This document shows positions 1,996-23,375 of a stretch of 64,000 nt of DNA, piece by piece; position 1 is the stretch's first letter; the number at the start of each line of letters is the position of its first letter. Below the pieces are notes generated by a model. That model had not been told where the DNA came from, did not search any database, and was given only the letters and a program-made list of their open reading frames with translations. Made by a program: the position numbers and the translations under genes. This DNA comes from a virus: IMG/VR virus record IMGVR_UViG_3300045988_020586. One strand, 5' to 3'.

Positions 1996-3507
1996 TTATT
2001 TTTTTACCTGAGCCTTAGCCTTACCCTTGGCTTCCTTCTTCTTGTTCTCTGCTGCCTTCTTATCAGCTGCTTCCTTAGCAGCCTTGGCAACAGCCTCTTC
2101 CTCGGCCTTGATCTCTTCGTCGGTCTTAAATGCCAAGTCGATAATATTCTCCTTAGCATAACCTACGAGCGGATCAGAAGGATTACGGAACAGATTAGAG
2201 ATGATACCTGCATACTGAGTAGCGTTATCCAGCATAGAATCAGACTTAACCTTAGCCATCATCTCTGGAACTACATCGCGATAGTATGCACGCTTAATAG
2301 AGATAACAGTCTTCTTAGCGAAGCTATTACCATCCAAGAAGTTCTTCTTCAGGTTCTCAACAAACTCACCTGGAGCTGCAATAACTGCTGCAGTAGCCTT
2401 ATCGGCAAATGCGATATTCTTGTTAGCTGTATCGATATGCGCCTGAACACGCTCCTTCTCAGGAAGCTTGTTCTCTTCCTCAATCATAATCTTGCCCTTA
2501 GAGCGAACCTCATCAGCACTGATAAGAACAAGACATCTTACAGCGTCTGCAATCTGATTATCGGTATACTTACATACACCGGTGTTCTTGTCTGTAGAAT
2601 GGTCAAGAAGCTCACAGAACGCAGATACAGGAGATCCTGACGTAGCGGTAACGTTGAAGAGGTGAGCGCCAATTCCATAAGTGAGAGTTCCGACACGACC
2701 CGTAAGGCTAACAACCTCACGAAACACGTCATGAAAATTCATGTTGTTGACACGCTCAAGATTACTCTTAGCAGAAGCAAGAGCCTTCTCAGCGTTTTCC
2801 TTGTACTTCTTGTCCTTGGTGTCCTTAAGTGTCTTCTCGGCGGACTCGATCGCACGCTTAGCTTCGATAGAGCGATATGCCTTATAGAAGTTCACGCACT
2901 GCATAATGCTGTCCATAAGCTTAGAATCACGATTCATAGCCAGGAAACCAGACAACGCCTCCTTAAGCTCTTCCTCATCCTTGATCTTTGTAGGATCAAA
3001 GACCTTACCTGCTGTTGCAGCACGAGCCTGTGCGTCTTTGTCAAGATTCTTTGCAGTCTCTTCTGAAACTTGTACAGCTGCACCTGTAACCTCAACTGCT
3101 TCAGCGTCTTCGGTCGAAGGCAAGAGCTTAGCCTCGTCAAAGTTTACACCAATCTCTTTAAGAGCTTCCTTAAGCTCTGGGAGCGCAGACTTGCGAATTA
3201 CTAACGCAAAGTCACTAGAACCATACTTAACCTCATTGCACATGCATACAGCAATGCCAAGAGCATTAATATGATTGATCTTGTCGATGGCTCCCTGCGG
3301 GATACCAGTATGCTCTGCAGCGTTCTCATCCAAGAAGAAACGATCATGAGCCATCTTCAACAAGTCTACCTGATGGTTACGGTCCATGCTTGACCCACCT
3401 GTTGTTGTGAGCATAGCTGCAGCCTCAACAGCTGCATTTACACCGTTATCACCATTGTTGTTATTCTGGGCAACCTTAACGTTACCCTTGTTCTTTTTAT
3501 TAGCCAT
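1996..3507 (-). CDS. 503-aa protein with Lys/Ala-rich basic C-terminal tail; function unknown, probably abundant
   Basis: Long intact ORF. Codon usage is visibly richer in G/C-ending codons than its neighbours and produces long antisense shadow ORFs. C-terminus KAEEEAVAKAAKEAADKKAAENKKKEAKGKAKAQVKK. Confidence 0.8.
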   Translation of the reverse strand: MANKKNKGNVKVAQNNNNGDNGVNAAVEAAAMLTTTGGSSMDRNHQVDLLKMAHDRFFLDENAAEHTGIPQGAIDKINHINALGIAVCMCNEVKYGSSDFALVIRKSALPELKEALKEIGVNFDEAKLLPSTEDAEAVEVTGAAVQVSEETAKNLDKDAQARAATAGKVFDPTKIKDEEELKEALSGFLAMNRDSKLMDSIMQCVNFYKAYRSIEAKRAIESAEKTLKDTKDKKYKENAEKALASAKSNLERVNNMNFHDVFREVVSLTGRVGTLTYGIGAHLFNVTATSGSPVSAFCELLDHSTDKNTGVCKYTDNQIADAVRCLVLISADEVRSKGKIMIEEENKLPEKERVQAHIDTANKNIAFADKATAAVIAAPGEFVENLKKNFLDGNSFAKKTVISIKRAYYRDVVPEMMAKVKSDSMLDNATQYAGIISNLFRNPSDPLVGYAKENIIDLAFKTDEEIKAEEEAVAKAAKEAADKKAAENKKKEAKGKAKAQVKK

Positions 3508-3550
3508 TTTGATAATGTTTTAAAAATGTTAAATACTAAAATTAATTAAT
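3508..3550 (-). promoter_or_regulatory. conserved start-proximal leader (minus strand ...AACATTTTTAAAACATTATCAAA-ATG)
   Basis: The plus-strand string CAT-TTTGATAAT abuts the start codon here and at 7699, 8994 and 12004. Confidence 0.4.
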
Positions 3551-3975: not shown

Positions 3976-4533
3976 TTAAACTTTTAAGTTATTTTTAATT
4001 TTCCTACGAGTGCGGCTTAATGCTGCTTTTATAGTGCCTGTAGGAGTTTTTAGCACTTTGCTAATTTCGTCAACTGATAGATCCTCTACGTAAAACAAAT
4101 TAAAAATCTTTTGTGTCTTTTTAGGGAGCTTTTCAAACTCCTTTAAAAGAAATTCGTGTTCAAGAAGATTGACAAGATCTTCTTCTTCCGAAGAACTAGT
4201 TAATTCTACGGGTAGTCGGCCCATATCTTCTCCTAATTCCATAGATTTCTCCTTTATCTTTCGTAAATAATCTATAGCCGTTCTATTAGCTATAATTCTC
4301 AGCCATCCGCCAAAAGACGAATAATCTGTGAATGTCGAGAGTTTCTGGTGAACCTTAAGAAATACAACATTTGTAAGATCTTTAGCTTCATCCATATCAT
4401 TCACGTAATGAAAGAGTACGTTGTCAACGAACTCCTTATAACGGTTAAACAATTTATTAAACGCAAGCTCATTTCCCTTCTGAGCTTCTTTTATGGTCTC
4501 AATCTCAGATTGAGTGATACGCTGATACTCCAT
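3976..4533 (-). CDS. ECF-type (sigma-70 family, group 4) RNA polymerase sigma factor
   Basis: 185 aa. Region-2-like FGGWLRIIANRTAIDYLRK and region-4 helix-turn-helix LSVDEISKVLKTPTGTIKAALSRTRRKI. Confidence 0.8.
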   Translation of the reverse strand: MEYQRITQSEIETIKEAQKGNELAFNKLFNRYKEFVDNVLFHYVNDMDEAKDLTNVVFLKVHQKLSTFTDYSSFGGWLRIIANRTAIDYLRKIKEKSMELGEDMGRLPVELTSSSEEEDLVNLLEHEFLLKEFEKLPKKTQKIFNLFYVEDLSVDEISKVLKTPTGTIKAALSRTRRKIKNNLKV

Positions 4534-4991: not shown

Positions 4992-5513
4992 TTAATTAAA
5001 TGTTTTCTTAATAAACTTAGAAAAATCTTCAAGATATTCATCTAGAAATCCAGCTTTCTCTGACAAGAAATTATCAAATAGTGCCATATTACCGCATTTA
5101 CATGATATTTTGTAATAGTTATCTAGGAATTTATAGTTATTTTGAAACCATACAACCCAACTATTAACCCATATCCAAAATGCGTATTCTCCAGCATTGA
5201 AAGTCTTGTTAATACATTCTAAGTTTATAGAGTCTGCAAAATTAAAATTTTGAGACCCCTCGTGGATTCCAAGAGCTTTTCTTATTGACGCATTCTTTTC
5301 ATCTGTTCTAGGTCTCCCTTTTCCAGTGTTGTAGATTGCTATATTCTCTTGATATACACGGTCTATCCATCGCGTTTTAACGGCATACTTAATTCTTTCG
5401 TGTGGCTTCTTACCAATATTTGATAATCTACCAAACTCTGTACACCATTTAAACGCGAGGTCGACAACATAAGGACACCTGTCCTTTATCATCGCTTTGT
5501 ATCCCTTTGTCAT
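4992..5513 (-). CDS. hypothetical protein
   Basis: 173-aa intact ORF, TAA stop. Confidence 0.65.
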   Translation of the reverse strand: MTKGYKAMIKDRCPYVVDLAFKWCTEFGRLSNIGKKPHERIKYAVKTRWIDRVYQENIAIYNTGKGRPRTDEKNASIRKALGIHEGSQNFNFADSINLECINKTFNAGEYAFWIWVNSWVVWFQNNYKFLDNYYKISCKCGNMALFDNFLSEKAGFLDEYLEDFSKFIKKTFN

Positions 5514-5522
5514 AACTAATAG

Positions 5523-5581
5523 GAAGAAGCTGGGGAATCGAACCCCAGACCCAAACCAAAAGGCGACGGTACCAACTTCTT
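5523..5581 (-). other. tRNA-like minihelix (acceptor-like stem plus canonical T-arm, no D or anticodon arm)
   Basis: Minus strand AAGAAGT...TGGGG-TTCGATT-CCCCA-GCTTCTT-C. The 7-bp closing stem has one G-U pair, and 27 nt lie between the stem and the T-arm. Confidence 0.3.
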
Positions 5582-5609
5582 TCTTCTCTCCACTTAGGTA
5601 GGAAGCACC

Positions 5610-5642
5610 TAGACTAAACTTACGCTACGCAAGTATAGTCTA
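5610..5642 (-). terminator. long hairpin (15 bp, one mismatch), better paired on the minus-strand RNA
   Basis: TAGACTAAACTTACG-CTA-CGCAAGTATAGTCTA. The A-C mismatch on plus becomes G-U on minus. No U-run follows, so its function is uncertain. Confidence 0.35.
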
Positions 5643-5728
5643 CAATGTTATTTACATTGCCGTTTAATTTATAGTATAGTGCTTAATGTATTTATCTCCT
5701 CTGTCTGTCAAAACCAAACACGCCCGTG

Positions 5729-5751
5729 TAGGCAGTTTTACAACATGCCTA
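5729..5751. repeat. hairpin family C copy 1 (loop GTTTTACAACA)
   Basis: Stem TAGGCA/TGCCTA around loop 5735-5745. Confidence 0.5.
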
Positions 5752-5808
5752 GGTTGCCACGTTTTCGCGAACAAAAATGTGATCTGTCATACATAGACAC
5801 AAACAGAA

Positions 5809-5831
5809 TAGACAGTTTTACAACATGTCTG
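5809..5831. repeat. hairpin family C copy 2 (loop GTTTTACAACA)
   Basis: Stem TAGACA/TGTCTG around loop 5815-5825. It shows a compensatory G-C to A-T change relative to copy 1. Confidence 0.5.
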
Positions 5832-5859
5832 GGTTGTTGTTCAGATTGAACACTCTCTG

Positions 5860-6700
5860 CGGGAGGGTGTGGACGTGAGGGGAGTCGACAAAATCTTCAA
5901 GTTCATTGCAACTATTCCACTCTGCTCCACGTTATATTTATATGGAACAGATAAAGAAATATATGCAAAACAGAAAGTTAATAACTTTCGTTTGTGATTG
6001 TTGTGGAAAAGAAGCTCAAAAACCTCTTTCCGAATACAACAGAAACAAGAAACTTGGTAGGAAGAATTTTTGTAGTAGAAGTTGTGCAATTCGTTATGCT
6101 AATAAAAATAAATTACATACATTTACAGATAAATGTAGAGAACATCTTTTAAGTATTTGCAACAATCAAATAGACGAATATACCGATTTTAGATATATCC
6201 TTAGAAGTGTCTATAAAAGATTTAAAGAAGTAGATATAGATTTAGAGTATCTAAAACAACTTTGGGAGACACAAAAAGGAATTTGCCCTTATACTGGTAT
6301 AAAATTAAAGCTTCCAACATATAAAAGCCATAACTTCTATTTTGATTGTGCATCTTTAGACAGAATAGATTCTTCTAAAGGCTACGTTAAAGGAAATGTT
6401 CAATTCATATCATTACCTATAAATTATATGAAATCTACTAAATCAGATATTGAAATCAGACAATTTCTTAAACAAATTTCTTCTTACACTTCACATTTCT
6501 GCGAAGATGAGACTATCTCTTCACCTAAAGAGGTGTTGGGCGCTCGAGCTGGTAATTAAGAAGACTATACTTCTCCAGTAGTCGTTGCACTTTCTTGTGG
6601 TGTACCACAAGCTTAGCTCAGGGTTAGCATGAACAATACTAGCTTTGAGCTATTATTGTTTTTAGCCTTCCTTGAATTCACCCAATATGGGCTCGGTAAG
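5860..6700 (+). mobile_element. group I intron-like element carrying an HNH ORF; boundaries and host exons unresolved
   Basis: P7-like GAGACTA 6509-6515 and TAGTC 6579-6583, flanking hairpins CACCT-AAAG-AGGTG and AGAAG/CTTCT. P9-like CTTGTGG-TGTA-CCACAAG 6594-6611. Same layout as the two splicing-competent introns in this window. Confidence 0.35.
5942..6559 (+). CDS. HNH-family homing endonuclease
   Basis: Zn-ribbon-like CDCCGKE...CSRSC at the N-terminus. C-terminal ASLDRIDSSKGYVKGNVQFIS motif typical of phage HNH endonucleases. ATG at 5942 (the track ORF begins at 5906). No in-frame TAG. Confidence 0.75.
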   Translation: MEQIKKYMQNRKLITFVCDCCGKEAQKPLSEYNRNKKLGRKNFCSRSCAIRYANKNKLHTFTDKCREHLLSICNNQIDEYTDFRYILRSVYKRFKEVDIDLEYLKQLWETQKGICPYTGIKLKLPTYKSHNFYFDCASLDRIDSSKGYVKGNVQFISLPINYMKSTKSDIEIRQFLKQISSYTSHFCEDETISSPKEVLGARAGN

Positions 6701-6897
6701 AACCCCTGTCCAAACAGATTATTTCATACACACTGTACATTTGTTTTGTAAATGTCCTGATGATCAGTCAGAACATTTGATTTAAACCACTTTAGGTGCG
6801 TTCTAAGGCATTTTTGCGACACTTGTGGTTAATTACTCCACTCGGTGACATACTCTGCCTCAGAATGCATTAGAACATGGTTGAAAATATATAGGAA

Positions 6898-6925
6898 TCC
6901 TCATGATACGAAGATACTTAGAGGG
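6898..6925. repeat. hairpin family A copy 1 (loop core TGATACGAAGATACTT)
   Basis: Stem TCCTC/GAGGG (one G-U); 16-mer at 6904-6919. Confidence 0.55.
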
Positions 6926-7065
6926 CTATATTCAGCATTTTTGATACATTTTGCAGGGTTCGATTAACTTTCTCAGAGCAACCAAATCTCCCCGATACAA
7001 AGATACGCACAAAACATATTGTTTGATCTACTGTCCCAATTTATTGTGTGGGTTCACATCTCTTC

Positions 7066-7098
7066 TTCTCATCGTGATACGAAGATACTTGATGAGAA
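7066..7098. repeat. hairpin family A copy 2 (loop GTGATACGAAGATACTT)
   Basis: Perfect 8-bp stem TTCTCATC/GATGAGAA; 16-mer at 7075-7090. Confidence 0.65.
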
Positions 7099-7167
7099 TG
7101 TTAATTCATTCTGAGATTCCTTCACTGTCTCGTCCCTCGGGACCTCCTGTAGTACTTGAGAATCTGT

Positions 7168-7192
7168 GTACGTGATACGAAGATACTTGTAC
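7168..7192. repeat. hairpin family A copy 3 (loop GTGATACGAAGATACTT)
   Basis: 4-bp stem GTAC/GTAC; 16-mer at 7173-7188. Lies 12 nt beyond the 3' end of gene 7204-7698. Confidence 0.5.
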
Positions 7193-7203
7193 TAGAAGAA
7201 GAA

Positions 7204-7698
7204 TTAGAAGCGATCGAACTGATAGTTGGCATAATACCAGCTGTTTGGATACTTGTCGCGCAACTCACGGTCGTGCTTCTCGTACTCCTGGTTCAGTTCG
7301 GTCATCTGCTTACGCTGATCCTCATCGATCTTCTGAGACAGGTCACGGAACATATTTGGCGTGATCTTCTGGTCGTCAGGAACGACGGTACCATTCTCGT
7401 CCTTGCCCAGAAGACGGGCCAACAGCTCTGTACGCTTCTTCAGAATATCGAGGGTGATCTTTGCCTTCGCACGGTCCTTACGGACATTGAGAAGCTCCTT
7501 AATACGGAGATAGTCAGCACACTTAACGATCTCTTTGACCTGGGAGATCTTACGCTTCTCCTCATCCTGGCGGATCTCTTCTGCCGCCTTGTCTGCAATG
7601 TCGGTTACGAGGTTACCCTTAACCAACTTTTCAACAACGTTGTCTACTGACGCATTCTGCTGCTCTTTAGCAGCACCTTTTGTTTCTGCTTTTGCCAT
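7204..7698 (-). CDS. hypothetical charged coiled-coil-like protein, probably highly expressed
   Basis: 164-aa ORF. Codon bias is like 1996-3507, with an antisense shadow ORF at 7156-7650. Shares the conserved leader. Confidence 0.8.
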   Translation of the reverse strand: MAKAETKGAAKEQQNASVDNVVEKLVKGNLVTDIADKAAEEIRQDEEKRKISQVKEIVKCADYLRIKELLNVRKDRAKAKITLDILKKRTELLARLLGKDENGTVVPDDQKITPNMFRDLSQKIDEDQRKQMTELNQEYEKHDRELRDKYPNSWYYANYQFDRF

Positions 7699-7740
7699 TT
7701 TGATAATGATTTAAAATGTTTGTAAATAAAATTAATTAAC
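7699..7740 (-). promoter_or_regulatory. conserved start-proximal leader (TTTGATAAT family)
   Basis: Plus strand CAT-TTTGATAATGATTTAAAATGTTTGTAAATAAAATTAATTAA, closely similar to 3508-3550. Confidence 0.4.
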
Positions 7741-7965
7741 ACATGTTACTTCGCCCACACTCCATGATGGATTCTTAACCAATACTGCACCGTCGCTATT
7801 AACGGTGATATCACATGGAGCCTTGTGGGCGTAGTTAGCCAAATGAATGAGTGCGAATCTAGCTTTTTGAGCTTGACTCTCATCAGGGTATTTGGATTCG
7901 AATGCCAATGTCTTGACAATCTTACCCTTTACCTTCTTAGTCGTATACACTGGAATCTTCCACAT
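7732..7965 (-). CDS. hypothetical small protein
   Basis: 77-aa ORF, TAA stop. Confidence 0.55.
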   Translation of the reverse strand: MWKIPVYTTKKVKGKIVKTLAFESKYPDESQAQKARFALIHLANYAHKAPCDITVNSDGAVLVKNPSWSVGEVTCVN

Positions 7966-8501: not shown

Positions 8502-8993
8502 CTAATCCTCCTTTGGTATTATGTTAGTACTGGAGGACTGCACAATCTGCACATGCTTACCATCAATAATGGTATCAATTGTTTCCGTGTTAGGAATGTC
8601 TGGCGGAGTCAAGATATTGTATTGGTCTGATTTATCGGGCAAGTTCATATACACATGCTTGTTAACCTCGAACTCATGGGATATACTTCCCTTAGTTATT
8701 GGTTCCCCAGATTTCTCTAGGACCGATACAACGTCACGCATAACCTTTTCAGGTATGCTGAAGAATACAGAATCCTGATGTCTCCACTGACCTTCCGTCT
8801 TCTGATATGTCAATGCATCAGAATAGTCGGCGAATGTAGGATTGTCAATTTCCTGCATCATCTTTGATACCATGAGCGAATCATCGTGTCTGATTTCGCT
8901 CTTTGTCTGCTTCACATAGTCACATGATGACACTGCGAAAGCTACAATAAGCACGATTAAGCACATGCTAAGCTTTTCAAATAATCTCTTCAT
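8502..8993 (-). CDS. putative lipoprotein (terminates on TAG)
   Basis: 163 aa. Signal peptide with lipobox-like AVSSC. Stop is TAG (CTA at 8502-8504). Confidence 0.7.
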   Translation of the reverse strand: MKRLFEKLSMCLIVLIVAFAVSSCDYVKQTKSEIRHDDSLMVSKMMQEIDNPTFADYSDALTYQKTEGQWRHQDSVFFSIPEKVMRDVVSVLEKSGEPITKGSISHEFEVNKHVYMNLPDKSDQYNILTPPDIPNTETIDTIIDGKHVQIVQSSSTNIIPKED

Positions 8994-9035
8994 TTTGATA
9001 ATTTATTAGAGATTTAACAAATGTTAACTATCCGG
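8994..9035 (-). promoter_or_regulatory. conserved start-proximal leader (TTTGATAAT family)
   Basis: Plus strand CAT-TTTGATAATTTATTAGAGATTTAACAAATGTTAAC. Confidence 0.35.
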
Positions 9036-10595: not shown

Positions 10596-10972
10596 TTACG
10601 TACAAATTTAATTTTATAACGAACAATAGACGTAATTACGCCATTTCTCAATCTAATACCAAGTGTTGGCTCAATAGAGAATTGCTTGCACGTATTGATG
10701 TAATCAACAACACTCTTTGAGATTGGGATAATCTCTGAGAATCCTGCTGACTTATCAATGTATGCAGCCATATACTTAACGGTTTTGCCGTTAGAACTAG
10801 GTTGTTGTACTATTTGCTTAATACATTCAACCTTACAGATCATAGTATCAATCGCTGCTTTTTGCTGCGCGTGACACTTTGAGGTCAGGAGTAGTAATAA
10901 TATTATTACAACTACTGCTATCAGTGGGCCAGGATTGTTTTTGTCCGGCTTCTCGTATAATCTTACAGCCAT
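10592..10972 (-). CDS. hypothetical protein with N-terminal TM or signal segment
   Basis: 126 aa; LIAVVVIILLLLLTSKCHA. Confidence 0.6.
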   Translation of the reverse strand: MAVRLYEKPDKNNPGPLIAVVVIILLLLLTSKCHAQQKAAIDTMICKVECIKQIVQQPSSNGKTVKYMAAYIDKSAGFSEIIPISKSVVDYINTCKQFSIEPTLGIRLRNGVITSIVRYKIKFVRK

Positions 10973-13221: not shown

Positions 13222-13253
13222 TAATACAACTATCTTCACAGACCATTGTATTA
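13222..13253. repeat. hairpin family B copy 2 (loop CTATCTTCACAGACCA)
   Basis: Perfect 8-bp stem TAATACAA/TTGTATTA; loop 13230-13245. Confidence 0.7.
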
Positions 13254-13370
13254 TGAGGTCTATTCGCGCTTTGAGTAATGAATCAGACTACACCATGATG
13301 CAACATGTGTAGTTTCGTCTAGGTCTCATCAGTGATGATTTTAGACTCTCCCTAGCTGAGTTTAAATAAA

Positions 13371-13402
13371 ACATACCACTATCTTCACAGACCATGGTAT
13401 GT
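13371..13402. repeat. hairpin family B copy 3 (loop CTATCTTCACAGACCA)
   Basis: Perfect 8-bp stem ACATACCA/TGGTATGT; loop 13379-13394. Confidence 0.7.
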
Positions 13403-22446: not shown

Positions 22447-23375
22447 AGAATATTGATACGTTATTGAGTATCAATGCAACCAACTCTATTCGCATATCGT
22501 TATGATGATATAACTAAACACAAAATATCATGATAACAAAAATTTGCAAACAATGTGGTAAGGAATTTGATGTACCAGAATACAGAAAGGATGCTAAATA
22601 CTGCTGTGACGAATGTAAACACAAAGCACTGCATGGAGATTTAAATTGTGAGTGTGAGGTTTGTGGCAAGAAATTCCACTTAAAACCATACGCTCTTAAA
22701 AAGAGTAAACATCATACATGTAGCCGCGAGTGTTTAAACAAACTTAAAAGTACATTATATAAAGGTGAAGGAAATCATCAATATGGTCTAAAAGGCGATA
22801 AGAATTCATCTTTCAAAGGAAACGTAATCCTGCGTAAGAACAATGGACTAATCGAGAGAATGATCTACAATCCTAGACACCCATACGCTGATCGTAATGG
22901 TAGGATTAAGGAACACAGATTAATAGTTGAGCAGAATTACAAAATGTTTGACGATAAATACTTTGAAGTTATAAACGGAGAGCATTATTTAAAGAAGAAT
23001 GTAGATGTACATCACATTAACTTTAATCATAACGATAATAGAATAGAAAACCTAATTCCCTTGACTAGAGCGGAACATACAAAGCTTCATAACCAAAATG
23101 AAGTTATATACAGAAATGAGAAGGGAATGATAATTGGTGTCTTAAAACAGGGTGAATTGCTGGAAAAGCCTGAAGAGGTCAATCAGCAGCCAAGCTTGGG
23201 TAGTGATACCCTTGAAGGTTCAGAGACTAACAGCCGAGTCTTACGAGACAGTAATGCTGACACGAGTGCCCTGCCCGGAAACGGTGAAGATATAGTCCGA
23301 TCTACTGATAACAAAATAAACAGTAGAAATATAGAGATAAAGAGCTCTATAGATTAACAACTCCTAATTTTGTTG
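22447..23375 (+). mobile_element. group I intron in dUTPase gene (junctions +/- a few nt)
   Basis: Splits motif III GVIDA|DYRGEI. Exon 1 ends in T and the intron ends in G. Core strings CAGAGACTA 23221-23229 and GATATAGTCC 23289-23298; GNRA hairpin CCG-GAAA-CGG. Contains an HNH ORF. Confidence 0.7.
22530..23357 (+). CDS. intron-encoded HNH homing endonuclease
   Basis: 275 aa. Cys-rich N-terminus and VHHINFNHNDNRIENLIPLTRAEHTKLH. No in-frame TAG. Confidence 0.85.
   Translation: MITKICKQCGKEFDVPEYRKDAKYCCDECKHKALHGDLNCECEVCGKKFHLKPYALKKSKHHTCSRECLNKLKSTLYKGEGNHQYGLKGDKNSSFKGNVILRKNNGLIERMIYNPRHPYADRNGRIKEHRLIVEQNYKMFDDKYFEVINGEHYLKKNVDVHHINFNHNDNRIENLIPLTRAEHTKLHNQNEVIYRNEKGMIIGVLKQGELLEKPEEVNQQPSLGSDTLEGSETNSRVLRDSNADTSALPGNGEDIVRSTDNKINSRNIEIKSSID

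Follow-up and report, generated by a model that had tools for sequence, protein, structure and literature searches.

A conserved ~460-nt RNA with a four-fold repeated module between a phage gene and the permuted tmRNA gene of crAss-like phages

Related RNA systems and the locus

In one-piece tmRNA, the pseudoknots PK2-PK4 form a series of compact structured elements that are contiguous with the tmRNA gene on the same strand and lie immediately 5' of the 3' strand of P2 and the T-arm; in two-piece tmRNA, the 5' "protruding" region of the acceptor piece takes this place. Short conserved sequences presented by several hairpins with variable stems are known from CsrB/RsmZ, where the shared sequence is GGA. 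Among the operator hairpins of phages (coat-protein sites of MS2 and PP7, lambda boxB), the coat-protein operators are irregular stem-loops with bulged bases, and the MS2 replicase operator overlaps a start codon. GOLLD, ROOL, and OLE are ornate large RNAs with palindromic hairpin loops that mediate oligomerization (PMC12286853).

The window of 64,000 nt (64 kb; IMG/VR record IMGVR_UViG_3300045988_020586) analyzed here belongs to a crAss-like phage (Suoliviridae, Oafivirinae, Burzaovirus-like). No viruses of the human gut are more abundant than the crAss-like phages, yet to our knowledge hardly anything is known of the non-coding RNAs that they encode; a literature search found no description of a crAss tmRNA or non-coding RNA. 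One other crAss-like phage abundantly transcribes long intergenic regions into lncRNAs whose function is unknown (10.1101/2020.03.07.982082). We found that a previously undescribed, self-contained multi-helix RNA domain of ~460 nt (7203 to ~6745, minus strand; Table 1) lies between a conserved phage gene (7204-7698) and a split phage tmRNA gene. It starts right after the stop codon of the former, ends ~8 nt before the latter, and contains a small, structured RNA module four times. This now defines a covariation-supported RNA with a new four-fold module, physically linked to a phage permuted tmRNA.

Like PK2-PK4, the domain is a same-strand series of compact elements contiguous with a tmRNA gene, immediately 5' of the equivalent of the P2 3' strand and the T-arm. 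However, it is much larger, consists of hairpins and long-range helices without recognizable H-type pseudoknots, contains four identical modules, and is covered by neither the Rfam nor the ARAGORN tmRNA model, with no detected pairing to the coding piece. With GOLLD, ROOL, and OLE it has in common that it is a large, covariation-supported phage RNA by a tRNA-type gene, with similar palindromic loops, but it is smaller and has a four-fold repeated module, which is not known to have been described for those RNAs. A search of 6745-7203 against Rfam 15, whose families include the RAGATH motifs, gave no match at the gathering threshold; with the E-value limit raised to 10, both the window and the related genome cr130_1 gave chance-level matches only, none of them to GOLLD, ROOL, or OLE. 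The multivalent design is similar to that of CsrB/RsmZ, but the module loops carry GWRYC pairs and no GGA, which places them outside that class, and CsrA is not known in Bacteroidota. The module also resembles an irregular stem-loop with bulged bases, as in the coat-protein operators; unlike those operators and the CsrB/RsmZ hairpins, the modules are held in a fixed conserved scaffold, not a loose array.

The repeated module and its RNA domain

A preliminary description of this DNA had reported three hairpins that share a 16-nt loop and had read them as a series in the 3' UTR of the gene at 7204-7698. The hairpins are real and are three of the four module copies. The 16-mer TGATACGAAGATACTT occurs exactly at 6904-6919, 7075-7090, and 7173-7188 (+ strand coordinates), and allowing up to three mismatches gives five matches against 1.13 expected, a number reached in 0 of 100 shuffles. 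Read on the + strand in this order, the stems are TCCTC/GAGGG, TTCTCATC/GATGAGAA, and GTAC/GTAC, as first described, and they covary strongly across relatives. The first of them is only 4 bp in the RNA sense because its fifth pair, T.G on the + strand, reads C.A on the minus (RNA-sense) strand; this hairpin is lengthened by an outer helix (ATATAG/CTATAT). A covariance model of the hairpins found three sites only in the whole window, all on the minus strand, and the one nearest the gene begins 11-12 nt past the stop codon. The fourth, degenerate copy (GATACAAAGATAC, 6994-7006) had been overlooked. It has no local stem in any genome, whereas a short variable stem closes the other three copies, and the helix that encloses it (consensus pairs 239-245/306-312) shows compensatory changes. 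What follows the gene on the sense strand is not a simple series of hairpins in a UTR but a conserved multi-helix RNA that carries four modules and abuts the tmRNA gene.

Table 1. Features of the locus (window coordinates; descending order)
Feature	Position	Strand	Details
Upstream gene, 164 aa, long helical hairpin	7204..7698	-	stop codon 7204-7206 directly abuts RNA domain
P1 closing helix, 5' strand UUCUUCUUCU	7194..7203	-	pairs with 7060-7069
HpA (copy 3 of the preliminary description)	7168..7192	-	GUAC-AA-GUAUC-UUC-GUAUC-AC-GUAC; covariance model 41.1 bits
Variable hairpin between HpA and HpB	7132..7144	-	GGUCCC-G-AGGGAC region; sequence not conserved across genera
Conserved hairpin GAAUG-AAUUAA-CAUUC, directly 5' of HpB	7096..7111	-	RNAalifold pairs 137-142/149-154, compensatory changes
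HpB (copy 2)	7066..7098	-	8-bp stem UUCUCAUC/GAUGAGAA around AA-GUAUC-UUC-GUAUC-AC; 39.5 bits
P1 closing helix, 3' strand AGAAGAAGAG	7060..7069	-	pairs with 7194-7203
Small conserved hairpin GUG-AACCCA-CAC	7046..7057	-	CCG-AACNUA-CGG in other genera
M4 GUAUCUUUGUAUC (6994-7006) in helix 7010-7015/6949-6954	6949..7015	-	helix encloses M4 and a nested hairpin
HpC (copy 1)	6889..6931	-	outer AUAUAG/CUAUAU, inner CCUC/GAGG; 16.8 bits
Long helix GCAUUCUGAGGCA/UGCCUUAGAACGC with nested Hp-d (6825-6841)	6798..6868	-	pairs 399-412/458-471 and 427-430/440-443, many compensatory
Hairpin with palindromic loop UGAUCA, abuts tmRNA	6750..6778	-	pairs 490-501/509-519
tmRNA acceptor piece, 5' exon: P2 strand and T-arm 5' half (GGACAGGGGU)	6702..6742	-	RF04321; alignment to cr7_1
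Group I intron, 813 nt, in tmRNA T-loop	5889..6701	-	RF00028, 81 bits; absent from three intron-less relatives
HNH endonuclease ORF inside intron	5906-6559	+	PHROG endonuclease matches
Remaining tmRNA gene	5514..5888	-	T-arm 3' half, acceptor 3' strand, intervening segment, acceptor 5' strand (5719-5725)
tmRNA tag frame GNVNNIVDYTCVA*	5620-5658	-	within 5514..5888
Terminal tRNA-like minihelix of tmRNA gene	T-arm 5530-5548	-	within 5514..5888

The module "loop" is itself folded. It reads G-W-R-Y-C N2-4 G-W-R-Y-C, and in the full module, (N)AA-G-W-R-Y-C-N2-4-G-W-R-Y-C-A, the central dinucleotides of the two pentamers pair with each other as a 2-bp helix (R3-Y12 and Y4-R11). Both inner pairs are paired in 100% of cases (types AU/GC/GU and UA/CG), and the pairing is compatible in 47 of 47 distinct instances against ~27 expected; for the instances other than GUAUC this is 31 of 31, matched in 0 of 5000 shuffles. 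M4 shows the same inner covariation. The half-sites are complementary in their centers and not identical: GAGTC partners with GAACC and never with GAGTC, and the combinations GAACC+GAACC and GAGUC+GAGUC were never found among the module instances. In the lineage of the window all eight half-sites are GUAUC (8/8; in HpC the module is UAA-GUAUC-UUC-GUAUC-AU), whereas other genera mix GAGUC, GAGCC, GAACC, and GAAUC, with GUGUC as an intermediate form. The tandem GATAC repeat seen in the loop is therefore only apparent, since the central dinucleotides of the half-sites pair. The conserved sequence is plausibly a recognition element, as had been suggested, but its two pentamers are paired and do not stand as a tandem repeat in an open loop.

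Loop and stem are conserved together well beyond the window. The four elements occur in unchanged order in at least five other Oafivirinae genera, whose flanking protein is only 26-34% identical, with lineages that include Burzaovirus-like phages, Cacepaovirus, Chuhaivirus, Buhlduvirus, Bohxovirus, and further metagenomic lineages. The HpA orthologs use at least 12 distinct, perfectly paired stems, and the outer helix of HpC is replaced by AAGCG/CGCUU in other genera. Across the outer stems, 94.6% of cells are paired against 50.5% in shuffles, with a covariation score of 0.95 against 0.17 (0 of 500 shuffles as high). The compared genomes are mostly close relatives, so the independent evolutionary events behind these figures are far fewer than the sequences. 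A scan of IMG/VR for distant relatives with a degenerate protein pattern found close relatives only, and a host-genome scan with GAGTCTTAGAACCA gave scattered single matches in unrelated taxa, which is uninformative because 14 bases match by chance in 596 Gb. We consider the evidence for the structure and conservation of the modules and the domain to be strong.

Repeats of this kind could also act in the DNA, as iterons or as direct repeats bound by a protein (at an origin, a packaging site, or transcription-factor sites), with inverted repeats that are incidental or form cruciforms. The four same-orientation repeats in a 460-bp non-coding stretch, several of whose loops are DNA palindromes (TGATCA, TAATTA/TAGCTA, GAATTC), would fit this. 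However, the flanking stems covary while the repeat stays constant, the half-sites are center-complementary, the spacing of 98, 82, and 89 bp is irregular and out of helical phase, and the GC-skew switch lies ~11 kb away, near 18.5 kb. The long-range helices, moreover, contain 47 G.U against 20 A.C on the sense strand. A DNA-level role is thus very improbable. Nor do the copies form a CRISPR array, as the stems flanking the repeat differ between copies and the sequences between copies are conserved among phages.

The domain around the modules is structured as well. Its consensus fold (RNAalifold) has 45 pairs, of which 31 show compensatory changes, and folding is more favorable for the sense than for the antisense strand (alifold -38.1 versus -31.3 kcal/mol; single-sequence z -2.59 versus -1.58). 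The long-range closing helix P1, which the preliminary description had missed, encloses HpA and HpB as one subdomain, and its pairing is retained with other sequences elsewhere (UAUUCUUUCC/GGAAAGAAUG, UUGAAUUC/GAAUUCAG, AUGUUUUCUC/GAGAAAACAU, and AUUAGAUCC/GGAUCUAAU). The conserved hairpin directly 5' of HpB (GAATTAAC) is present in 50 of 56 loci. Among the palindromic loops, that of Hp-d reads UAAUUA in 44 loci and UAGCUA in 12, and the UGAUCA (TGATCA) loop beside the tmRNA gene is invariant (54/54 loci). With these pairs, P1, and the module stems, the domain has the large multi-helix, covariation-supported build of the ornate RNAs.

The upstream gene, the probable transcript, and the permuted tmRNA gene

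It is reasonable to assign the hairpins to the downstream transcript of the gene at 7204-7698, since the closing helix starts right behind the stop codon, so that no promoter would fit in between. A scan for sigma-70-type promoters found 10 against 7.1 expected from shuffles, with a model that is not applicable to Bacteroidota promoters. The 164-aa protein itself has no Pfam or PHROG match; AlphaFold2 predicts a helical hairpin (pLDDT 82), for which Foldseek returned no informative fold match.

Such a position invites a simpler explanation, namely that the hairpins are 3' UTR or processing elements, which would block 3' exonucleases in the manner of REP elements or mark cleavage or termination between the mRNA and the tmRNA precursor. 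The start of the domain directly at the stop codon fits this, as does the processing that a permuted tmRNA precursor requires (PMC11915505), and other hairpins with short stems and big loops (family B, see below) flank RNA genes of these phages. Yet the hairpins lack the features of intrinsic (Rho-independent) terminators, with loops of 16-17 nt and no U-run after them, and a terminator scan of 5400-7900 found nothing between 6745 and 7203. In addition, neither a stabilizer nor a cleavage site would need four identical modules, a concerted switch of their sequence, and a ~460-nt scaffold with long-range helices. We therefore regard this explanation as improbable.

The tmRNA gene next to the domain is circularly permuted (two-piece), in the order P2, T-arm, acceptor 3' strand, intervening segment, and acceptor 5' strand, and in the window it is also split by a group I intron (boundaries: U at -1, terminal G). 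The permuted-tmRNA model RF04321 scores 66.4 bits in cr7_1, 63.3 in cr124_1, and 54.4 in cr130_1; in the window the match is truncated (6700-6742, model positions 1-43). ARAGORN called tmRNA* in three relatives, to which the window aligns except for the intron. The hairpins (6889-7192) lie outside the modeled tmRNA, which starts at 6742 in the Rfam model and at ~6772 according to ARAGORN. They are not part of the intron either: an Rfam group I match at 6489-6781 takes the UGAUCA hairpin as P1, but this hairpin is conserved in intron-less relatives, and the true intron is 5889-6701.

The gene-gap-tmRNA order is retained across all relatives examined, with the hairpin-bearing domain filling the gap on the same strand. 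This strict adjacency and conserved order give moderate support for a link of the domain to the tmRNA, along with the abundant intergenic lncRNAs of the other crAss-like phage and with the whole-locus consensus fold, in which the stretch from the tag hairpin to the terminal tRNA-like minihelix holds a single 4-bp stem as its sole helix. The Rfam model covers the tRNA-like domain only (PMC11915505) and so cannot confirm this. In the same fold, coding piece included, the domain paired with none of the tmRNA pieces, and it could thus be an independent RNA or a plain 3' UTR. Pairing of the module loops with the T-arm of tmRNA or tRNA was considered because GAGUC/GAACC are complementary to GACUC/GGUUC, and was rejected because the T-arm is unchanged in the GUAUC lineage.

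Possible partners and roles of the modules

We propose, with a probability of roughly 0.4, that a single sequence-specific partner, probably a protein, docks at each of the four modules alike, on an RNA that would be co-transcribed with the tmRNA. According to this proposal, which we infer from the comparisons above, the upstream gene, the domain, and the tmRNA precursor would be transcribed together, with the domain in the position held by PK2-PK4 in one-piece tmRNA. A single trans-acting partner would then bind the near-identical modules. It would most probably be an RNA-binding protein, encoded by phage or host, that recognizes the invariant A, G, and C together with the two bulge-like W positions on an irregular stem-loop, in the way that coat proteins of phages recognize their operator hairpins. 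The RNA would thereby serve as a multivalent platform, or sponge, linked to the maturation or function of the tmRNA. That the partner is single and shared has moderate support from the concerted presence of GUAUC at all eight half-sites, from the covariance model, which found no further modules elsewhere in the 64 kb, and from a module-like sequence at the start of a sigma gene (see below). The neighboring proteins have no Pfam or PHROG match, and none was identified as a binding partner. If the modules do bind a protein, they would represent a new RNA-protein recognition code, and the natural specificity switch from GAGYC to GUAUC could be used to find that partner.

The inner pairing and the palindromic loops suit an RNA-RNA role as well as they suit a protein role.

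An RNA-only architecture is somewhat unlikely but is the main rival of the docking-site proposal. The domain would then be a new ornate phage RNA in which the modules and palindromic loops make tertiary or intermolecular RNA contacts (as a homodimer or higher oligomer) and are structural joints, not protein sites. The large size and many covarying helices of the domain are consistent with this, and the inner covariation shows that the conserved "loop" is folded; ROOL and GOLLD are likewise phage RNAs near tRNA genes (PMC12286853). Moreover, Hp-d alternates between two palindromes and the terminal loop is an invariant one, and covariation from palindrome to palindrome is the signature that backs symmetric intermolecular kissing loops in OLE and GOLLD (PMC12286853). 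However, the Hp-d loop shows a single switch, that is, one evolutionary event, and about one in three double changes would keep palindromy by chance. The identical modules lack self-complementarity, neither the domain nor the tmRNA was found to hold a complementary receptor that varies in step with them, and Rfam shows no similarity to GOLLD, ROOL, or OLE. If the RNA does self-assemble, it would be a new example of RNA quaternary structure in nature, of which there are very few. In both cases, docking sites or RNA contacts, the domain offers a concrete handle on why a lytic phage has its own ribosome-rescue RNA.

The preliminary description had also placed the three hairpins (family A) in one class with a second hairpin family of the window, family B, which flanks a RAGATH-1 hammerhead, because both carry the heptamer TATCTTC. 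The heptamer is present in both families in the window (repeat D4), and they share a design of short covarying stems, conserved loops of 15-20 nt, sense-strand orientation, and a location near RNA genes. One factor could then bind both, or UAUCUUC of A could kiss GAAGAUA of B on sense transcripts; in the window the sense-strand loops are complementary at 9 of 10 positions, 7 of them contiguous. Against a kinship, the conservation of family B on the sense strand puts the heptamer on opposite strands in A and B. Nor did the kinship survive comparison with cr130_1, where family B has the loop GGUUCGUGAGAAUAG and family A has loops of the GAGUC/GAACC type, without the heptamer, which is therefore specific to the window lineage. 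There, complementarity is confined to GGUUC with GAACC, in another part of the B loop, and the A loops changed to GUAUC without a matching change in B. The B consensus, GGUYYGUGARRAUAG in both the window and cr130_1, lacks the bipartite GWRYC and occurs at other loci, and the family A covariance model found no family B hairpin in the window. We therefore reject kissing or a common factor, and a shared class is highly unlikely.

Beyond the domain, a fifth module-like sequence overlaps codons 2-7 of a phage ECF sigma gene in the window lineage, which recalls the overlap of the MS2 replicase operator with its start codon. The proposed partner could in this lineage control translation of the sigma gene through its start region, and a copy of the module at its start codon is easier to explain by a trans-acting regulator than by a structural joint. 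A broader and unlikely possibility is that a new class of ornate phage RNA is fused to a two-piece tmRNA, its modules and palindromic loops building an RNA-only or RNA-protein multimer that would couple ribosome rescue to ECF sigma control. The motif at the sigma start is absent from the non-GUAUC lineages, and we rejected it as a general feature; the match is also partly accounted for by conserved Arg-Ile-Thr codons. Within the GUAUC lineage it is found in every genome, with AGC, AAC, or CUC as the spacer and both half-sites kept.

The repeat, its setting and the neighbouring tmRNA gene

The exact 16-mer TGATACGAAGATACTT starts at 6904, 7075 and 7173 on the plus strand, with three flanking stems as in the preliminary description, and to these copies we add a fourth, degenerate one (Table). 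At up to three mismatches we found 5 matches against 1.13 expected by chance (0 of 100 shuffles reached 5), and a covariance model built from the family A hairpins (6898-7192) recovered three sites only in the whole 64-kb window, each on the minus strand. The RNA-sense form of the repeat is AAGUAUCUUCGUAUCA, because all genes of the first 18 kb lie on the minus strand. The initial observation on family A is confirmed and much extended by these results.

The window belongs to a crAss-like phage that is about 90% identical in this region to the genomes cr7_1 and cr124_1 (Suoliviridae, Oafivirinae, Burzaovirus), both of which have an annotated tmRNA just downstream, in the sense direction, of the hairpins. 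The Rfam permuted-tmRNA model scores 66.4 and 63.3 bits at these tmRNAs, and ARAGORN reports them as permuted, with the tag (D/G)NVNNIVDYTNVA. ARAGORN called no tmRNA when run on the window, because an 813-nt insertion interrupts the T-loop. Alignment to relatives places a group I intron here (RF00028 core, 81 bits), the borders of which fit the -1 U/terminal G rule, with GGGU/GCCC as P1; the true 5' splice site lies just after the U at 6702. The Rfam group I coordinates (6489-6781, minus strand) were rejected as the extent of the intron, since intron-less relatives also keep the two elements that had been taken as P1/P2, namely the UGAUCA hairpin and the P2 strand of the tmRNA. A recent paper on a tmRNA database gives standard, permuted and intron forms, and the combination of permuted with intron is not among them (PMC11915505). 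Given the location of the two-piece tmRNA gene, the hairpins therefore fill a 460-nt gap between it and the stop codon of gene 7204-7698.

Features of the window and of related loci
Feature	Position	Strand	Description
Fourth family A copy	6994-7006		degenerate, GATACAAAGATAC
Long-range closing helix	7194-7203 with 7060-7069		UUCUUCUUCU with AGAAGAAGAG; encloses the first two module hairpins as one subdomain
Hairpin			GAAUG-AAUUAA-CAUUC; RNAalifold consensus
Helix around the fourth module			RNAalifold consensus
13-14-bp helix			GCAUUCUGAGGCA / UGCCUUAGAACGC with nested hairpin; RNAalifold consensus
Terminal hairpin			adjoins tmRNA; carries the UGAUCA loop listed below; RNAalifold consensus
Palindromic hairpin loop (Hp-d)	6825-6841	minus	UAAUUA; UAGCUA in other genera
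Palindromic hairpin loop	6750-6778	minus	UGAUCA; invariant, 54/54 loci
tmRNA gene	5514-6742	minus	circularly permuted (two-piece), intron-split
Group I intron	5889-6701	minus	813 nt, in tmRNA T-loop
HNH endonuclease ORF	5906-6559	plus	within the intron, opposite to tmRNA
Fifth module-like sequence	4514-4530	minus	A-GUAUC-AGC-GUAUC-AC, perfect match to family A module; codons 2-7 of ECF sigma gene 3976-4533
Family B hairpins	13224-13251, 13373-13400; weaker copy 10821-10848		short stem, sense-strand loop GGUYYGUGARRAUAG
Family B hairpins, locus L217	6197-6233, 6348-6384, 6555-6591		
Family B hairpins, locus L003	~2935, ~2660		

A conserved structured domain with four folded modules

Across genera, the conserved core of the repeat reads (N)AA, G-W-R-Y-C, 2-4 nt, G-W-R-Y-C, A, and the pentamers seen are GAGUC, GAGCC, GAACC, GAAUC, GUGUC and GUAUC. 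Inside this core R3 pairs with Y12, and Y4 with R11, without exception: GAGUC is partnered by GAACC, GAGCC by GAGCC, GAAUC by GAAUC and GUAUC by GUAUC, while GAGUC with GAGCC gives wobble pairing. GAACC+GAACC and GAGUC+GAGUC do not occur among the 47 distinct module instances, all of which are compatible with inner pairing (about 27 expected). With GUAUC left out, compatibility holds for 31 of 31 instances, as high a value as none of 5000 shuffles gave, and pair counting finds 100% paired (AU:25 GC:9 GU:1 and UA:27 CG:8). The fourth module follows the same rule despite its missing local outer stem. Judged by these pairing patterns, the 'loop' is a folded module. The tandem GATAC-GAA-GATAC described earlier is present in the sequence, but not as a tandem repeat in a free loop, since the centres of the two pentamers always pair; it is a by-product, because the paired dinucleotides are both R-Y, and the strands of the tiny helix so resemble a direct repeat.

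Cross-genome comparison bore out the conservation of loop and stem. Four motif copies stand at matching places in 39 IMG/VR relatives (at one locus, only three fit the exact pattern), and the stems vary in sequence with pairing kept; those of the gene-proximal hairpin include GUAC/GUAC, GUGC/GCAU, AGAC/GUCU, GGAC/GUCC and GGGC/GCCC. Cacepaovirus, Chuhaivirus, Buhlduvirus, Bohxovirus and further lineages from metagenomes share the arrangement of gene, gap, tmRNA, two small ORFs and ECF sigma gene; in them the protein flanking the gap is only 26-34% identical, and each gap holds the four elements in unchanged order. When 36 hairpins were aligned to the model, pairing in the 4-bp outer stem reached 94.6% (50.5% in shuffles), with two-sided changes at all four pairs and a covariation score of 0.95 against 0.17 (0 of 500 shuffles as high), and all slid-register controls collapse. 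Among the sequences used in the analysis as a whole, many are close relatives, so that the independent evolutionary events are modest in number. A role at the DNA level, with the repeats acting as iterons, is less likely, as it conflicts with the covariation of the stems and with half-sites that are complementary at their centres.

The modules lie within a larger fold. For 12 genomes RNAalifold predicted 45 pairs, of which 31 show compensatory changes, and the closing helix is replaced in other genomes by UAUUCUUUCC/GGAAAGAAUG, UUGAAUUC/GAAUUCAG, AUGUUUUCUC/GAGAAAACAU or AUUAGAUCC/GGAUCUAAU. Because this helix begins directly after the stop codon, there is no promoter space between gene 7204-7698 and the domain. 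Of the two strands, the sense strand is predicted to fold better (sense versus antisense: alifold energy -38.1 versus -31.3 kcal/mol; single-sequence z-score -2.59 versus -1.58), and the predicted sense pairs include 47 G.U versus 20 A.C. With an E-value limit of 10, no Rfam family matched the domain, whether in the window or in cr130_1, and we found no description of it in the literature. We conclude that the sense strand carries a structured RNA domain that is conserved and self-contained, holds four copies of a folded module and is strictly linked to a permuted tmRNA gene. It falls outside every family tested; in kind it is comparable to the accessory domains of tmRNAs, to the ornate RNAs of phages and to RNAs that bind protein through several hairpins. 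That it merely stabilises a UTR, terminates transcription or directs processing is less likely: terminator features are not present in the domain, and the repeated folded module and its scaffold would be left unexplained.

Concerted change and the proposed role

Essentially all half-sites of the four modules are GUAUC in one lineage, comprising the window, cr7_1, cr124_1 and loci L123-L161, L196 and L216; the sole exception seen is one GUGUC. Other genera mix GAGUC, GAGCC, GAACC and GAAUC inside single genomes, and L209 and L210 carry the intermediate form GUGUC. Specifically, the two W positions are U at eight of eight half-sites in the GUAUC lineage and A elsewhere, the GUGUC exception aside. 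Such a concerted change would be expected if one partner were common to all modules. The Hp-d loop in this lineage has also changed, from UAGCUA to UAAUUA, palindrome to palindrome.

We propose, with a probability of about 0.4, that a single sequence-specific partner, probably a protein, docks at all four modules as equivalent sites, and that the domain serves as a multivalent platform or sponge linked to the maturation or function of the tmRNA. One transcript would join the domain to the upstream gene and to the precursor of the tmRNA, and the position of the domain would correspond to that of PK2-PK4 in a one-piece tmRNA; in the consensus fold of the whole locus, a single helix, a 4-bp stem, separates the tag hairpin from the terminal tRNA-like minihelix. 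The main rival, a role for the domain as RNA only, we hold to be rather unlikely. It draws on the palindromic loops UGAUCA (54/54 loci) and UAGCUA/UAAUUA, a type of signature cited in support of symmetric intermolecular kissing loops in OLE and GOLLD (PMC12286853). ROOL and GOLLD are phage RNAs near tRNA genes (PMC12286853), and the present domain resembles them as a phage RNA with a tRNA-type gene nearby. That the domain belongs to a truly new class, an RNA or RNP that assembles and is coupled to a phage tmRNA, seems more doubtful still.

The fifth module-like sequence, at the start of the sigma gene, occurs in every GUAUC-lineage genome, with AGC, AAC or CUC as spacer and with half-sites and four synonymous positions constant. 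Other genera, with GAGYC-type modules, have AUGAAGAAUCCUAAGAUUACC or similar at this place, with no fit to the module. The match is partly due to conserved Arg-Ile-Thr codons, and we regard this possible module as a lead rather than a finding.

Family B hairpins and further observations

Family B resembles family A in general design, and its hairpins seem to delimit RNA genes. They flank a RAGATH-1 hammerhead in the window (13281-13362); three of them surround the orthologous hammerhead in cr130_1 (loop GGUUCGUGAGAAUAG), and B-type hairpins lie inside and after the tmRNA gene in cr131_1 and after it in cr130_1. The two families had been thought to form one class, possibly bound by the same factor and read on opposite strands. 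They share a heptamer in the window, and their sense-strand loops are complementary at 9 of 10 positions; in cr130_1 both the heptamer and this complementarity are absent, and only GGUUC/GAACC could pair, elsewhere in the B loop. The same-class idea is therefore unsupported.

Three minus-strand genes, gene 7204-7698 among them, have a common 20-45-nt sequence ending in ...TTAAA(A/T)CATTATCAAAATG ahead of their start codons (3505-3549, 7696-7739 and 8991-9013), and a similar motif stands before genes in cr130_1 and cr273_1; the sequence probably serves the phage as a promoter or as a signal in the 5' UTR. The tRNA-like minihelix (7-bp acceptor-like stem and T-arm, GGGGUUCGAUUCCCC) closes the tmRNA coding piece (~5520-5592, minus strand; 2710-2776 in L001) and may be a handle for RNase P or RNase Z processing; ARAGORN calls it in cr7_1 as an odd 67-nt 'tRNA-Cys(aca)'. 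The predicted tmRNA tag of the window (5620-5658, minus strand), GNVNNIVDYTCVA*, has Val-Ala at its end, where Ala-Ala is usual, and Cys in place of the Asn of close relatives. Relative to cr7_1, the tmRNA intervening segment has a 28-nt hairpin (sense-strand sequence UAGGCA-UGUUGUAAAAC-UGCCUA) in duplicate, at 5729-5756 and 5809-5836. The other half of the window holds a second group I intron core, at 23077-23318 on the plus strand (RF00028, 65.2 bits).
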